This document shows positions 14,877-24,161 of a DNA stretch of 64,000 nucleotides, piece by piece. The DNA is from an uncultured Alphaproteobacteria bacterium (GTDB taxonomy: Bacteria; Pseudomonadota; Alphaproteobacteria; SP197), in contig OY282363.1 of NCBI GenBank assembly GCA_958295695.1, positions 1,113,156-1,177,155 of the forward strand, written 5' to 3'. The notes under the pieces are model-generated. The model ran no database searches, had not been told where the DNA came from, and saw nothing but the letters and a program-made list of their open reading frames with translations. The position numbers and the translations under genes were made by a program. Numbering within the stretch: the stretch's first letter is position 1; the number at the start of each line of letters is the position of its first letter.

Positions 14877-15890
14877 TCAGCCGCCGGCCGGGGCGGCCGC
14901 AAGGGCGCGTTCCAGCATGTCGAGGCGGTCGGAGCCGAAATGGAGCTTGCCCTCGAACAGGAAGGTCGGCACGCCGAAGACGGAACGTTCGATCGCCTCG
15001 GCGGTGTTGCGGGCGACGGCCGCCTTGTAGCCCTCGTCGGCCGCGATCCCGGCCATCGGCCGGGGGCCCAGCCCGGCCGCGTCGGCCATCCGCTGCAACC
15101 ACGCCGGATCGGTGATGTCGGCGCGTTCGGACCAGTAGCCCCGCATCACGGCCAGGACGAAAGCTTCGGCGCATCCCCGTTCGGCGGCGTAGACGAAGCA
15201 GCGTAGCGCGCGCGAGGGCCGCAGCGGGTAGTCCGGGCGCGGGTCGTGGACGAGGCCGTTCTCGCGGAAGCGGTCGCGCACGTCCCGTTCGTACCAGGCC
15301 ACGCGCGCCGGCGTCTGCTCCATGGGCCGCAGGCCGCCGATGGTCTCGATCAGGTTGGCGAGGTGGACGGGCCGCCAGAGGAGTTCGGCGCCGTACCGGC
15401 GGCAGAGCGCGCCGATGCGCGTCGCGGCGAGATAGCTCCAGGGGCTGTGCACGTCGAAGTAGAACGCGACCGGCGGCCGTTCGGGCCGGACGCGCGGGGC
15501 GGCCCGGCCATCGAGGAAGCGCTCGAGGTCGACGACCGCCCGCGTGTGCTCGCCCGTCATCACCTCGCGCCCGTCCTGCTCGAGGCGCACGGAGAAGACG
15601 ACCTTGCGGCCCGAGACGGCCGTCGCCTCGGCATGGACGTCGACCGGCCGGCCGGCGAAGGCCGGGCCCGTGTGGTCGACCGCCACCCGGACGCCGACGC
15701 CGGCCTCGCCCTCCTCGAGATAGGGATGGAGCAGCGGGGCGCAGGTCGCCTCGATCCACAGGATCAGCGTGACCGTGGCCACCGCCTCGACGCCGGCGTT
15801 GCCGACCGCCGCGGCCGTGTCCTCCGCGGTGGGGTCGAAGCCGAGCGTGTGGGCGAGGCCGAGGGGGACCGGGCGCATGGGCCGAACCAT
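14877..15890 (-). CDS. apparent fusion: hotdog-fold thioesterase (FlK-like) plus 2-hydroxychromene-2-carboxylate isomerase/DsbA-like domain
   Basis: N-terminal ~130 aa GNAGVEAVATVTLILWIEATCAPLL...VGVRVAVDHTGPAFAGRPVDVHAEATAVSGRKVVFSV matches the thioesterase superfamily. C-terminal ~200 aa VAFYFDVHSPWSYLA...GVPTFLFEGKLHFGSDRLDMLE matches the HCCA-isomerase/DsbA family. There is no stop between the domains. An internal GTG (MRPERPPVAFYFD) could alternatively start a separate isomerase. Confidence 0.6.
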   Translation of the reverse strand: MVRPMRPVPLGLAHTLGFDPTAEDTAAAVGNAGVEAVATVTLILWIEATCAPLLHPYLEEGEAGVGVRVAVDHTGPAFAGRPVDVHAEATAVSGRKVVFSVRLEQDGREVMTGEHTRAVVDLERFLDGRAAPRVRPERPPVAFYFDVHSPWSYLAATRIGALCRRYGAELLWRPVHLANLIETIGGLRPMEQTPARVAWYERDVRDRFRENGLVHDPRPDYPLRPSRALRCFVYAAERGCAEAFVLAVMRGYWSERADITDPAWLQRMADAAGLGPRPMAGIAADEGYKAAVARNTAEAIERSVFGVPTFLFEGKLHFGSDRLDMLERALAAAPAGG

Positions 15891-15945
15891 GCGCGAAAGG
15901 CCGCCGGACCGGAAGCCCCTTCGCCGCGCGGCGGAGGAGCGGCGT

Positions 15946-16776
15946 TCAGGCGTCCGGGCCGGGAGGGACCGGCCCCGTCGGCGGAAGGGCGCCGTTCGCG
16001 TCGTGGCGTTCGCCGCCCCCGAGCGGCGGATTGAAGACGCTCAGCACGTGGAGGTCGGACAGCGCGCGCAGGCGGTGCCTGTCCTCGGGCCCGACGCAGT
16101 AGACGTCGCTCGCCCCCAGGGTCCATGTCCCGCCGCCCGCCATCTCCGCGACCTCGACCGAACCCTCGAGCACGACGTTCGCCTCCCAGTGGTGGCGGTA
16201 GTGGAGATCGGCCTCGCCGCCTTCCGCGAACCGGACGTCGGAGACCGAGAAGCCCAGGCGGTCGGCGGCGGTCGCCAGCCTCGCCGCGCGCCATCCGCCC
16301 GCGCCCTCGACCGCGTGGCCCGCCGCCTCGGCCATCGCCCGGGTCTTCACGAACATCCGCTCCCGGCCCTCGGGCGGCGGCGCGCCGCCGGGCGCGTAGG
16401 CGCCGTCGGCGTCGTGGCTCTCGTCGCCCCGGAGCGGCGGATTGAAGATGCTGACGATGCGGAAGCCCTCGCCGCCGGCGTTCTCCAGCCGGTGCCGGTC
16501 GCGCGGCCCGACGCAGTACATCATGCCGGGCTCCAGGTCCCAGACCCGGCCGGTCGTCAGGTCCTCCAGCGTGCCGGTCCCCCGGCGCACGTAGTTCGCT
16601 TCCCAGTGGTTCTTGTACCAGAGCAGCGCGTGGCCGCCCGGCTCTCCGCGCGCCTCCGAGAGGCTGAAGCCCAGCCCGTCCGAGGCGTTCACCATGCGCA
16701 GAGCGCTCGACCTGCCGCGGTTGATGGAAACGATCCGGCCTCCGGCCTCCATGTCCGCGAGCGTGCGGATCAGCAT
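15946..16776 (-). CDS. tandem-duplicated ectoine synthase-like protein (two EctC cupin domains fused in one polypeptide)
   Basis: Domain 1 is MLIRTLADMEAGGRIVS...LWYKNHWEANYVRRGTGTLED...FNPPLRGDESHDADGAYAP. Domain 2 is MFVKTRAMAEAAGH...LHYRHHWEANVVLEGSVEVAE...FNPPLGGGERHDANGALPP. Each aligns across its full length to EctC (H. elongata MIVRNLEE...HYKHHFEAVYCIEGEGEVE...FTPGLTGNEVHREDGSYAP). Preferred start is M19 of the track ORF because GGAGGA lies 7 nt upstream; the track start is 16830. Confidence 0.75.
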   Translation of the reverse strand: MLIRTLADMEAGGRIVSINRGRSSALRMVNASDGLGFSLSEARGEPGGHALLWYKNHWEANYVRRGTGTLEDLTTGRVWDLEPGMMYCVGPRDRHRLENAGGEGFRIVSIFNPPLRGDESHDADGAYAPGGAPPPEGRERMFVKTRAMAEAAGHAVEGAGGWRAARLATAADRLGFSVSDVRFAEGGEADLHYRHHWEANVVLEGSVEVAEMAGGGTWTLGASDVYCVGPEDRHRLRALSDLHVLSVFNPPLGGGERHDANGALPPTGPVPPGPDA

Positions 16777-22207: not shown

Positions 22208-23638
22208 CTACTCCCGGACGCGGGCGGCGTCGCCGAACCGGACGATCCTCTCGATCGTGCCGGCGAGGTCGTCGTCGCCGATGCGGGGATTGATGGTGCA
22301 GAAGCGCAGGCAGGTGCGCCCCTTGAGTTCCGTGGAGGTCACGAAGGCGAAACCGTCGTCGAGCAGGGCCGCGACGATCCCGCGCTGCAAACCGCTCGTT
22401 TCCGCCTCGTCGAGGCCGTCGCGCAGAAGACGGAAGGTCACGACGGCCAGCGTGGGCTCCGTGACGATCTCGAAGCGGCCGCTCGCGCGCATCATCGCCG
22501 CGGCGCGTTCCGCGGTGGCGATGCCGCGCCGGACGGCCCGCCGGAAGGCCGCCGCGCCGAACACCTTGAGCGAGAGCCACAGCTTGAAGGCGCGGAGCCC
22601 GCGCGAGAGCTGGAGGCCGCGCTCGGAGAAGTTCACCTCGCCGTCGCCTTCGGCGACATCCTGGAGATATTCGGGGCTGGCCGCGAAGGCATGGTTCAGC
22701 AGGCCCGGCTCGCGCACGAAGCAGATGCCGGCCTCGTAGGGCTGGAACAGCCACTTGTGGGGGTCGATCACCACGGAATCGCCGCGCTCCATGCCGGCAA
22801 GCAGCGCGCGGCCGTCCTCGACGAGGGCGGCGGCGGCGCCATAGGCGCCGTCGATATGGACCCACAGTCCGAACTCGTCCGCCAGATCGGCGATTCCGTG
22901 GAGGTCGTCGACCGCGCCGGTGTTGGTTGTTCCGGCGTTCGCGACGATGCAGAACGGCCTGAGGCCCGCCTCGCGGTCGCGCCCGACCGCCGCGCGCAGC
23001 CGGTCGAGGTCGATACGGTAGTCGTCGCCCGTGGCGACCGTGCGAAGCTGGTTCGCGCGGAAGCCCAGGATGCGCAGGGCGCGCGCCACGCAGCTGTGGG
23101 TCTGGTCCGCGCAGTAGGCCACGGCGCCGGTCATGTCGTCGCCCAGCTTGTGGTCCCGGGCGACGGCGAGCCCGATCATGTTGGCGACCGAGCCGCCGCT
23201 GGTGAAGACGCCGTCGGCGTGGCCCTCGAGGCCCGCGAGCTCCTTCACCCACTCGAGCGTCGTGAGCTCGCATTCGACCGGCCCCGGCGTCTCGCGCCAC
23301 ATGCTGGCCGCGGCGTTGTAGCCCGACGCGAGCGCGTCGGCGACCGCCGCGACATAGTTGGACGGTCCCGGCACGAAGGCCAGGAAGCGGGGATGCGCGA
23401 TCCGCCCCATCGCGCCGAAGACATGCCGGTCGGCGAAGGCGAGCGCCTCCCTCCAGTCCCCGGCGTCCTCGGGCAGCGGCTCGCGCAGGGCGCCGCGCAA
23501 GGTCGCGAGATCGGCGTCGACGGCCGCGGGCGTCCCGGTCATGGCCGACCAGTGCTCGACCAGCCTGTCGACCGCATGGTAGCCCAGCGCCCGCATTTCC
23601 TCGGGCGAGAGCTCGAGCCGCCCCGGGTCCCTGGTCAT
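22208..23638 (-). CDS. group II pyridoxal-dependent decarboxylase (DABA/glutamate/aromatic-amino-acid/CSAD family)
   Basis: 476 aa. PLP-Lys motif SVVIDPHKWLFQPYEAG and GGSVANMIGLAVAR are typical of Pyridoxal_deC. Confidence 0.8.
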   Translation of the reverse strand: MTRDPGRLELSPEEMRALGYHAVDRLVEHWSAMTGTPAAVDADLATLRGALREPLPEDAGDWREALAFADRHVFGAMGRIAHPRFLAFVPGPSNYVAAVADALASGYNAAASMWRETPGPVECELTTLEWVKELAGLEGHADGVFTSGGSVANMIGLAVARDHKLGDDMTGAVAYCADQTHSCVARALRILGFRANQLRTVATGDDYRIDLDRLRAAVGRDREAGLRPFCIVANAGTTNTGAVDDLHGIADLADEFGLWVHIDGAYGAAAALVEDGRALLAGMERGDSVVIDPHKWLFQPYEAGICFVREPGLLNHAFAASPEYLQDVAEGDGEVNFSERGLQLSRGLRAFKLWLSLKVFGAAAFRRAVRRGIATAERAAAMMRASGRFEIVTEPTLAVVTFRLLRDGLDEAETSGLQRGIVAALLDDGFAFVTSTELKGRTCLRFCTINPRIGDDDLAGTIERIVRFGDAARVRE

Positions 23639-23678
23639 GGTCCCGCGTAGCGCGGCGGCCGCGCCGGGGCAAGGGGCT

Positions 23679-24161
23679 TCAACGGGCCGGCGACGCCTCC
23701 GCCCCTCCCAGCCAACGGGCGAGCGCCTTGTCCGGATCGGCGAGGCGCTCGACCGAATCGTACCAGTGGGTTTGCCAGCCGCGCTCCGGGAGCCCGGCGA
23801 ACAGCATCAGGTTCAGGGGATAGACCTCGCTGTCGGTGCAGCGCCTGAAGTCGTCGCGAAAGAGGAAGACCGCTTTCCCCCAGGCGATCGCCATGCCGAG
23901 CTCCACCATGACTCCCTCGTCCGGCGGGCAGCCGTTGACGACCGCGAACAGGCCGTCCGCCTCGCGCACATCGCCGAGGTCGGCCTGCCCGATCCGGTAG
24001 GCCCAGCCGGAGCTCGCCCGGTCGATCTGGTTGTTGCGGGCGAACGGCTCCCATACCTCGGCGCCGATCGCTTCCAGGGCCGAGACGAGTTCCGCCAGCG
24101 GCCCGGCGCGCTGCTGCGTCGAAAACCCGTAGGGGTTCGCCAGATAAAGGGTCCTGGTCAT
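23679..24161 (-). CDS. nucleoside 2-deoxyribosyltransferase-fold protein (NDT/DNPH1/MilB-like putative N-glycosidase)
   Basis: 160 aa MTRTLYLANPYGFS...GLFAVVNGCPPDEGVMVELGMAIAWGKAVFLF, a Rossmann-like NDT-family pattern. It sits 40 bp upstream of the decarboxylase on the same strand. The track start is overextended. Confidence 0.6.
   Translation of the reverse strand: MTRTLYLANPYGFSTQQRAGPLAELVSALEAIGAEVWEPFARNNQIDRASSGWAYRIGQADLGDVREADGLFAVVNGCPPDEGVMVELGMAIAWGKAVFLFRDDFRRCTDSEVYPLNLMLFAGLPERGWQTHWYDSVERLADPDKALARWLGGAEASPAR

Follow-up and report, generated by a model that had tools for sequence, protein, structure and literature searches.

The ectoine synthase EctC catalyses a reversible elimination of water at an amide or amidine and has side activities (PMC6344544, PMC5924519). 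Structures of the P. lautus enzyme (PlEctC) define the iron ligands Glu57, Tyr84 and His92 and the substrate contacts, of which Trp21, Asn38 and Thr40 touch N-gamma-acetyl-2,4-diaminobutyrate (N-gamma-acetyl-DABA) and are fully conserved in 437 EctCs encoded in ect clusters (PMC6344544). For orphan EctC-type proteins, two papers of 2018 and 2019 (PMC5924519, PMC6344544) give the function as unknown. Among other enzymes relevant here, CphZ acts as a dipeptidase on beta-Asp-Arg/Lys and CphZ-like enzymes release basic amino acids (PMC9974463). FGM3, of fusaoctaxin, is described as a retro-aldolase acting on gamma-hydroxy-L-arginine; its Tyr two residues past the Lys was proposed from a model as general base (bioRxiv 10.1101/2023.03.21.533663). 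Here we describe a locus in a 64,000-nucleotide stretch of DNA from an uncultured alphaproteobacterium (contig OY282363.1; the whole stretch is called the window below). It codes for a fused EctC-EctC protein next to a Rieske oxygenase, a divergent pair of AstE/AspA-type zinc amidohydrolases and two pyridoxal phosphate (PLP) enzymes.

The reading that we favour, held with about even confidence and drawn from family chemistry and gene context, is that the window carries a copy of a previously undescribed catabolic cluster for amino-acid-derived nitrogen compounds. As its most likely substrates we regard basic amino acids in a derivatised form, N-acylated or cyclised to an amidine and possibly N-methylated. 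This reading draws on domain content, conserved synteny, association statistics, a GcvT-like gene, importers and hydroxylases in related loci, and on the intact catalytic residues of both EctC halves, both AstE paralogs and the PLP lyase. All enzyme superfamilies involved are known; the cluster itself is uncharacterised and is not a categorically new system.

Gene Layout of the Locus

Genes were picked by GC content at third codon positions (GC3) in the window, whose overall GC content is ~72%, and checked with Pfam and NCBIfam. All nine domains that the initial annotation had predicted between 14877 and 24161 were found again by GC3 gene calling and Pfam, and its three transcription units lie on the strands it gave. 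An independent pipeline called the same genes in L081, a near-identical metagenome strain, which carries an extra AAA_14/DUF4143 ATPase gene between the class-V gene and AstE2. The core and accessory genes are the following.

15946-16776, minus strand: EctC-EctC bicupin, 276 amino acids, core (Pfam Ectoine_synth twice, E = 6.6e-61)
17071-18233, minus strand: Rieske non-heme iron oxygenase alpha subunit, 387 amino acids, core (Pfam Rieske and Ring_hydroxyl_A)
18364-19503, plus strand: AstE/AspA-family zinc amidohydrolase type 1 (AstE1), 379 amino acids, core (Pfam AstE_AspA_cat)
19511-20614, plus strand: AstE/AspA-family zinc amidohydrolase type 2 (AstE2), 367 amino acids, core (Pfam AstE_AspA_cat)
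20965-22203, minus strand: class-V-fold PLP enzyme of FGM3/UstD type, probably a Cbeta-Cgamma lyase, 412 amino acids, accessory (Pfam Aminotran_5)
22208-23638, minus strand: group II PLP decarboxylase, 476 amino acids, accessory (Pfam Pyridoxal_deC, 220 bits)
24331-24876, plus strand: CMD/AhpD-family protein, accessory (Pfam CMD), divergent from the operon formed by a nucleoside 2-deoxyribosyltransferase (NDT) gene, the decarboxylase gene and the PLP enzyme gene

The ATG start of the Rieske gene was read directly from the sequence. AstE2 starts 8 nt past the end of AstE1, and the decarboxylase gene lies 4 nt upstream of the class-V gene.

Conservation of the Core Module

The fused EctC-EctC protein is designated EctC2 in comparisons between genomes. 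A scan of one genome per species gave 80 EctC2 loci; in a metagenome scan centred on AstE1, orthologs of AstE1 were taken at an identity of at least 64%. The related loci compared number 170 in all. De novo clustering of six-frame open reading frames (ORFs) gave many antisense shadow families, which were disregarded. Among the 80 EctC2 loci, neighbours common with the window are found only in the closest ones (L001-L004), which are Rhodospirillaceae or unclassified alphaproteobacterial metagenome-assembled genomes. Their Rieske ortholog (73-79% identity) is encoded directly upstream of EctC2, and they have the divergent AstE1-AstE2 pair (67-75%).

Typing of all 129 EctC2 copies assigns 13 loci to the type of the window. 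An AstE1 ortholog is present in 11 of the 13 and a Rieske ortholog in 7, and both loci devoid of AstE1 are contigs that end on the relevant side. The reverse, AstE1-centred scan of metagenomes gave ten contigs with an AstE1 ortholog, of which six carry an EctC2 and/or Rieske ortholog and three are too short to tell. No EctC2 or Rieske ortholog occurs on the contigs with more distant AstE-like genes (0/70 versus 6/10; Fisher p = 7e-7). AstE1 orthologs of 64-77% identity are present in L002-L004, L006, L008, L092-L101 and L172, invariably followed by AstE2, and Rieske orthologs of 72-79% are encoded directly upstream of EctC-EctC in L001-L003, L045, L053, L093-L096, L100 and L172. Since the association appears both in the loci of this EctC2 type and in the reverse scan, the Rieske/EctC-EctC unit and the divergent AstE pair are a real conserved module, found beyond chance in some six or seven alphaproteobacterial lineages. 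The co-conservation of these two units, on which the initial annotation had built, is thus borne out.

A second clade (L045, L053, L056, L063, L065, L067, L075, L079) has the Rieske (72-74%) and EctC2 (46-47%) pair only, adjoining a TauD-like oxygenase and a PotD-type transporter.

Three or four lineages have the decarboxylase, class-V enzyme and CMD genes adjoining the core, with orientation unchanged. Class-V orthologs (78-80% identity) are encoded near the AstE module in L003, L095 and L172, in L095 and L172 decarboxylase orthologs (70-72%) immediately upstream of the class-V enzyme, and CMD orthologs (54-58%) beside the class-V operon in L003, L172 and L174. The shared order is CMD, then (hydroxylase or NDT)-decarboxylase-PLP lyase convergent with AstE1-AstE2, the latter being divergent from Rieske-EctC2; order and orientation recur in the window and L081, in L172 and L173, in L095 and partly in L003. 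The proposed link of the decarboxylase/class-V unit with the core therefore stands in full in L095 and L172/L173, and in L003 for the class-V enzyme (80%) and CMD only, the decarboxylase being absent. The three units of the initial annotation hold together as one group for the Rieske/EctC-EctC unit, the AstE pair and the decarboxylase/class-V part of the third unit, from which the NDT gene drops out. Overall, about one third of the parts then proposed are not members of the cluster.

Fuller Versions in Marine Rhodospirillaceae

The gene order in marine Rhodospirillaceae starts with CMD, two HalD-like genes, the decarboxylase, the class-V enzyme and a 2Fe-2S ferredoxin. It continues with a major facilitator superfamily (MFS) transporter, a short-chain dehydrogenase/reductase (SDR), AstE2, AstE1, the Rieske oxygenase, a small cupin, three to six tandem EctC2 genes and a Dpp/Opp-type ATP-binding cassette (ABC) transporter. 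L172 is 70% identical to the window in the decarboxylase, 78% in the class-V enzyme, 77% in AstE1, 78% in AstE2, 73% in the Rieske protein and 58% in CMD, with the same relative gene orientations. Both blocks are present in L095, with a polar amino acid ABC system between them. In L082-84, where AstE paralogs number three and EctC2 genes six, a GcvT-like gene replaces the Rieske gene; in L003 the Rieske and GcvT-like genes lie side by side. Tandem arrays of 4-6 EctC-EctC paralogs, 34-66% identical to the single copy of the window, are found in L082 (4617-10831), a JGI contig, L099 (2076-7460), L001 and L002.

Transporters of the relatives include a DppA-like binding protein (796 bits), a ProP-like MFS protein and a Lys/Arg/Orn-type binding protein (TIGR01096, 256.5 versus a cut-off of 256.35). 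Their HalD-like proteins have the HxD iron motif and are accordingly read as hydroxylases, not halogenases.

The window EctC2 is the ortholog of the last gene in the marine arrays, and AT-rich spacers of the window occupy positions filled by genes in the relatives. A tblastn search of the window spacers for hidden ferredoxin or HalD-like genes found none (best E = 1.7). The window copy is most likely a reduced, trimmed version of the cluster, which is best preserved in marine Rhodospirillaceae.

The EctC-EctC Bicupin

The EctC-EctC family counts 613 homologs (E <= 1e-5), nearly all of 270-290 amino acids and with both halves conserved in register. The N and C halves of the window protein share 44% identity. 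Solved EctC structures are matched by either half at E = 1e-18 to 1e-21, and the matches to Ectoine_synth and PRK13290 are strong. An AlphaFold2 (AF2) model built from 29 sequences (pLDDT 92.7, pTM 0.91) predicts a bicupin fold that matches bicupins such as quercetin dioxygenase, oxalate decarboxylase and ureidoglycine aminohydrolase.

The N half keeps the iron triad as E59/Y87/H95 and the C half as E198/Y226/H234. The triad is invariant in the EctC-EctC alignment (A1) and, apart from F replacing Y226 in 5 of 13, in the type-9 orthologs. Arg25, Tyr52 and Phe106 (PlEctC numbering) are also kept in both halves. The positions of Trp21, Asn38 and Thr40 are occupied by Ser, Ser and Ala in the N half and by Trp, Ser and Val in the C half. 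The canonical set of these three residues is found in none of the EctC2 paralog types, which differ at these very positions, as expected for a family handling related substrates; one paralog type lacks the metal site of the N half. Because Asn38 and Thr40 are missing in both halves, ectoine itself, among the compounds considered by the initial annotation, is unlikely to be the substrate. The protein probably retains the Lewis-acid chemistry of EctC and acts on a substrate other than N-gamma-acetyl-DABA or ectoine.

A bona fide EctC is a single domain of ~130 amino acids encoded with ectA and ectB. The window protein is a two-domain fusion of 276 amino acids, and no ectA or ectB gene was detected in the window or in the 10-kb flanks of the related loci. 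The passages searched in PMC5924519 and PMC6344544 make no mention of a fused EctC form, and our literature search found no description of the cluster or of an EctC-EctC fusion.

The AstE/AspA-Type Hydrolase Pair

The best PDB match of AstE1 is CphZ (8EIN; 197 bits, 34.5% identity, full length). The CphZ zinc ligands H50/E53/H179, the catalytic E251 and the carboxylate clamp R102/N112/R113 are kept in AstE1, AstE2 and the third paralog type of the relatives. At the CphZ positions D222/E223/D181/K366, AstE1 has D/T/H/V, while AstE2 has K and S at D222 and E223 and A at D181 (alignment A2 for the Lys). The initial annotation had called the two paralogs DoeB-like, which they are not: the DoeB model TIGR02994, with a cut-off of 402.7, gives them 31.6 and 24.2 bits, and the nearest relative with a solved structure is CphZ. 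They are not succinylglutamate desuccinylases either: no NCBIfam AstE equivalog matches at E <= 0.001, only the superfamily Pfam domain (56 bits). Their residues thus suggest carboxypeptidase-like N-acyl-amino-acid hydrolases with two specificity pockets, different from CphZ, DoeB and AstE.

The Rieske Oxygenase and Possible Demethylation

The Rieske protein has the CxH...CxxH and mononuclear iron motifs. GbcA is its best NCBIfam match, with 122 bits (cut-off 670) over profile positions 30-222 only, and its best PDB matches are CntA and then Stc2, in the N-terminal half only. Enzymes of GbcA/CntA/Stc2 type would be recognised by an equivalog score and an adjacent reductase gene, and the window protein has neither. 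L172 codes for a 2Fe-2S ferredoxin of 97 amino acids (11273-11566), absent from the window, which could serve the Rieske oxygenase.

The suggestion that the substrate is N-methylated gains indirect support from the GcvT-like tetrahydrofolate (THF)-dependent demethylase encoded beside the Rieske protein in L003 or replacing it in L082. For the GcvT-like proteins, the top-scoring model is that of the THF-binding portion of trimethylamine N-oxide (TMAO) demethylase (Tdm C-terminal domain), followed by GcvT, DmdA and SoxA.

The PLP Enzymes and CMD

The class-V enzyme matches FGM3 (PDB 9X4U) with 272 bits and 41% identity over 388 aligned positions, and UstD with 181 bits. Its PLP lysine motif is YKTYGPH, compared to YKVYGPH in FGM3 and YKLFGPH in UstD. 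SufS has its catalytic persulfide cysteine in the motif GHHCA; the corresponding position reads GHFYA in the window enzyme, GHFFS in FGM3 and GTLMA in UstD. A cysteine desulfurase (SufS/CsdA/IscS) was rejected since the catalytic Cys is absent and the SufS and CsdA models score far below their cut-offs; TIGR01976 gives 344 versus a cut-off of 352. The protein that had been named a class-V aminotransferase is thus FGM3/UstD-like and devoid of the SufS cysteine, being probably a Cbeta-Cgamma lyase of that type.

The decarboxylase is closest in the PDB to the tryptophan decarboxylase of R. gnavus (4OBU, 285 bits), followed by plant and animal aromatic amino acid decarboxylases; the DABA decarboxylase 2QMA follows with 164 bits and the glutamate decarboxylase (GAD) entries with ~118-120 bits. 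Its best NCBIfam match is RhbB, at 206 versus a cut-off of 900, which does not sustain the proposed DABA decarboxylase. Assignment as a GAD is equally discounted (TIGR01788, 25.5 versus 380).

Homologs of these enzymes are also found in other surroundings. In L174 (8458-15034) a class-V homolog (67%) is encoded with CMD, a PALP-family enzyme, another Rieske oxygenase and a Dpp-type transporter, and in L121 (6976-10424) a class-V homolog (53%) with a distant AstE-like gene and an EamA transporter. L172 has a second, MfnA-like PLP decarboxylase adjoining CMD (4868-6118), which has no counterpart in the window.

Proposed Function

Family chemistry and gene context are the basis of all steps proposed here. 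The compound imported would be a zwitterion derived from an amino acid, or dipeptide-like; uptake would proceed in the relatives by the DppA-like ABC, ProP-like MFS or Lys/Arg/Orn-type ABC systems. The Rieske oxygenase, accompanied or replaced in the relatives by the GcvT-like THF enzyme, would remove an N- or O-methyl group or hydroxylate the compound. At its two iron sites EctC-EctC would add water to, or remove it from, an amidine or amide, opening (or closing) a cyclic amidine to give an N-acyl amino acid; neither N-gamma-acetyl-DABA nor ectoine would be the substrate. The two CphZ-like zinc amidohydrolases would then cleave the N-acyl-amino-acid bond to release an amino acid with a free alpha-carboxylate, the acidic pocket of AstE1 being suited to a basic side chain and AstE2 presenting a lysine at that position. 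The freed amino acid, probably basic, would be degraded by the decarboxylase and the FGM3-like PLP lyase, after gamma-hydroxylation by the HalD-like iron/2-oxoglutarate (2OG) hydroxylases in the relatives. Mycosporine-like amino acids, carnosine/anserine-type dipeptides, gamma-glutamyl amides and tetrahydropyrimidine-containing peptides were weighed as candidate substrates, and none is claimed.

Several observations weigh against a single catabolic cluster. The window is devoid of transporters of the conserved types, of the ferredoxin, SDR, hydroxylases and GcvT, and of five of the six EctC2 paralogs, and its cluster is perhaps a decaying remnant. With the L172 ferredoxin as probe, the 64 kb yielded neither a reductase nor a ferredoxin that could partner the Rieske protein. 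In L097, the remaining one of the ten AstE1-ortholog contigs (21 kb), the AstE module lacks EctC2 and Rieske genes; in L002, L082 and the JGI contig it has no decarboxylase/lyase pair within 10 kb, and in L121 and L174 the class-V enzyme is present but EctC2 is not. Most EctC-EctC family members are in other contexts, with TauD-like genes as in the second clade or without Rieske/AstE partners, their neighbours being P450, Baeyer-Villiger monooxygenase, glutamine-synthetase-like or peptide-transporter genes. Finally, sequence does not tell whether EctC2 works as a hydrolase or as a cyclase.

A broader proposal, held more tentatively and well short of even confidence, is that EctC-EctC bicupins are a new family of cyclic-amidine/isopeptide hydrolases or cyclases. 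They would act with the CphZ-like pair and a demethylating oxygenase in a widespread unrecognised pathway, feeding marine and soil alphaproteobacteria (probably also Binatia, Rokubacteria and sponge symbionts) on abundant nitrogen-rich metabolites. If true, this would be the first physiological role for orphan EctC-type proteins. These proteins make up about one quarter of all EctC homologs, and the locus with its marine versions provides their first conserved genomic context. That context of hydrolases, an oxygenase/demethylase, importers and amino-acid-degrading enzymes opens their function to biochemistry and genetics. Should the substrates turn out to be nitrogen compounds common in the sea, the cluster would supply a route that models of dissolved organic nitrogen turnover now lack. 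Each of the three, the bicupin, the CphZ-like pair and the bacterial FGM3-like lyase, would be a new biocatalyst.

Alternative Readings

The main rival, which we regard as rather unlikely, is that two neighbouring pathways act on separate substrates: Rieske/EctC-EctC/AstE on N-acyl or amidine compounds, and a hydroxylase, decarboxylase, FGM3-like lyase and CMD in a hydroxylation-decarboxylation-retro-aldol route for Lys, Orn or Arg. The independent occurrence of the two parts speaks for it: within 10 kb around the AstE module the decarboxylase/lyase pair is missing not only in L002 and the JGI contig but throughout L082-84, and the class-V enzyme (53-67% identity) is found in L121 and L174 without EctC2. 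The pair in L095 comes with a Lys/Arg/Orn ABC transporter of its own, and in L081 the unrelated ATPase gene is inserted between the two units. Yet order and orientation recur across different GC contents, 72% in the window versus ~60% in L003, L095 and L172, and a weaker AstE-like/class-V pairing is seen in L121 as well. Moreover, the basic amino acids released by CphZ-like enzymes would feed such a route (PMC9974463).

An alternative catabolism of ectoine or hydroxyectoine is improbable. EctC-EctC would run in reverse, AstE would deacetylate N-acetyl-DABA and the decarboxylase would convert DABA to 1,3-diaminopropane. The strong Ectoine_synth and PRK13290 matches agree with this, as do the one acidic pocket residue retained in AstE1, suited to a short basic side chain, RhbB, a DABA decarboxylase, as the best NCBIfam match of the decarboxylase, and the ProP-like transporters of the relatives, which handle compatible solutes. 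However, Asn38 and Thr40 are lost in both halves and Trp21 in the N half, and no paralog type is canonical by the residues given in PMC6344544. The DoeB and RhbB scores are far below their cut-offs, the closest solved decarboxylase is a tryptophan decarboxylase, and the Rieske and GcvT genes, six paralogs, DppA-like transporter and FGM3-like lyase are left unexplained. The locus is not the canonical doe/eut pathway, in agreement with the initial annotation: besides the DoeB scores, no DoeA, DoeC or DoeD gene is present in it. A DoeB/EutE deacetylase would be expected to score on TIGR02994 and to have a DoeA/EutD partner, and the locus has no M24 gene. An M24 gene at 55.7 kb was rejected as a distant DoeA (DoeA_2, 178 bits versus a cut-off of 575).

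Biosynthesis appears improbable to a similar degree. EctC-EctC would cyclise an N-acyl amino acid to an ectoine-like solute or a natural-product building block tailored by the oxygenase and the PLP enzymes. The known EctC reaction does run toward cyclisation, and natural-product pathways are known to employ UstD- and FGM3-type enzymes as well as oxygenases of HalD type. Against it, no version of the cluster has an acyltransferase, ATP-grasp, nonribosomal peptide synthetase or EctA/EctB-like gene, the conserved genes include two or three amide hydrolases and importers of three kinds, and tandem paralog arrays beside uptake systems would be typical of catabolic loci.

Use of cyanophycin dipeptides, with the AstE paralogs as CphZ orthologs cleaving beta-Asp-Arg/Lys, is very improbable: CphZ is the closest solved relative and its catalytic and carboxylate-binding residues are conserved, but the identity to AstE1 is low, E223, D181 and K366 are replaced in AstE1 and D222 is Lys in AstE2, and no cphA, cphB or aot genes are nearby.

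Local Additions and Non-Coding Elements

On the favoured catabolic reading, the NDT, thioesterase-DsbA, drug/metabolite transporter (DMT) and ProV genes would be local additions. The features that surround the cluster genes are the following.

13882-14760, plus strand: EamA/DMT transporter, 292 amino acids (Pfam EamA)
14877-15890, minus strand: fusion of an FlK-type thioesterase and a DsbA-like domain, 337 amino acids (Pfam FlK 89 bits, DSBA 116 bits)
16931-16956, minus strand: palindrome with an 11-bp stem, in the AT-rich spacer of 294 bp that separates the Rieske gene from EctC-EctC
18287-18315, no strand: inverted repeat CTGTCAAG-N13-CTTGACAG, in the 130-bp divergent Rieske-AstE1 spacer, read from the sequence
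23679-24161, minus strand: nucleoside 2-deoxyribosyltransferase (NDT), 160 amino acids (Pfam Nuc_deoxyrib_tr)

NDT is 67.5% identical to CtNDT of C. thermalis (8RH3/8PQR), in which the nucleophile Glu88 acts with Tyr7, Asp62 and Asp111 in catalysis (PMC10913048). Y7, D62, E88 and D111 are conserved and Ser10 is Asn; by these residues the protein is a true deoxyribosyltransferase of nucleosides. Conservation is very strong among its 5524 homologs, and members with 80-82% identity are encoded among transposases or beside amidohydrolase/ClpS genes. With homologs in unrelated contexts and HalD-like hydroxylases filling its position in L095 and L172, the NDT-fold protein was rejected as the pathway member that it had been taken for and is probably a lineage-specific passenger.

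The thioesterase-DsbA fusion, the DMT transporter and the ProV ATPase had likewise been counted as parts, and have no counterpart adjoining any of the 170 related loci. The fusion gene, 55 nt downstream of the EctC-EctC gene, is lineage-specific and found outside the window only in L081. The DMT transporter has only weak matches (27-31%) in 4 of the 80 genome loci; it is possibly a local importer of the substrate, not conserved with the cluster. The CBS domain ascribed to the ProV-like ATPase was not detected at E <= 0.001. The window has a low-GC island (0.54 versus 0.72) at 10000-11800, with an ORF of 301 amino acids (10327-11232, plus strand) whose L081 counterpart has no recorded Pfam family. 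Between ProV and DMT, L081 has a toxin-antitoxin-containing insert, with four additional small genes, one of them for a RelE toxin. The region appears to be variable and is probably mobile.

The palindrome at 16931-16956 could be a terminator, an operator or a deletion scar; its position is occupied in the relatives by GcvT, the small cupin gene and further EctC-EctC genes. The CTGTCAAG-N13-CTTGACAG repeat is a candidate operator. The AT-rich spacer between AstE2 and the class-V gene (20614-20965) has a repeated motif, CTTTCAGTTAT, and is the site of the AAA_14/DUF4143 insertion in L081. A promoter scan of the window sequence gave no match, and terminator-like sites occur at background rate.

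Farther from the cluster, at 6446-9968, a 2OG-Fe(II) oxygenase gene (DIOX_N and 2OG-FeII_Oxy; 8910-9968, minus strand) adjoins urease genes (fused gamma/beta, and alpha). Past CMD, the segment 25232-29022 codes for a double-DUF427 protein, an agmatinase-family ureohydrolase (NF002564, 273 versus 302), an FAH-family hydrolase and an SDR. Together with the FGM3-like lyase and the nearby urease, these genes hint at a metabolism of guanidino compounds. At 54470-56925, ~32 kb from the locus, an M24 creatinase/DoeA-like peptidase gene adjoins an MFS transporter gene.

Comparison with Known Systems

The EctC-EctC protein shares with EctC (PDB 5BXX, 5ONM) the Ectoine_synth cupin halves, the iron ligands, Arg25/Tyr52/Phe106 and the C-terminal motif PPL-x-G-x-E-x-HD. 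It differs in being a fused bicupin, in the changes of Asn38 to Ser, of Thr40 to Ala or Val and of Trp21 in the N half, and in its gene not being beside ectA/ectB and forming arrays of up to six paralogs in the relatives. With DoeABCD/EutABCDE the cluster has a common logic, the opening of a cyclic amidine followed by deacylation by an AstE/AspA-family zinc hydrolase, but the locus lacks the M24 enzyme DoeA/EutD, DoeC, DoeD, EutABC and EnuR.

Likeness of the AstE pair to CphZ/AotO (8EIN; PMC9974463) comprises the full-length match and, in both paralogs, the zinc triad, Glu251 and Arg102/Asn112/Arg113. Changes affect E223, the residue for the Arg guanidinium, and D181 and K366, those for the Asp moiety; in AstE2 a Lys takes the place of D222. 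The AstE genes are a fixed pair or triple of paralogs beside EctC-EctC instead of cyanophycin/aot genes. CntA, GbcA and Stc2 give the best NCBIfam and PDB matches of the Rieske protein and have its cluster and iron motifs. The similarity is limited to residues 24-217, the catalytic domain being divergent, and there is no reductase gene near the window Rieske gene, while L172 has the 2Fe-2S ferredoxin gene. The class-V enzyme has the Tyr two residues past the PLP Lys found in FGM3 and absent from the decarboxylative aldolase UstD, the YK-x-YGPH motif and no catalytic cysteine. Unlike FGM3 and UstD, it is a bacterial protein in a catabolic-looking context, encoded with a group II decarboxylase and, in the relatives, with HalD-like hydroxylases.

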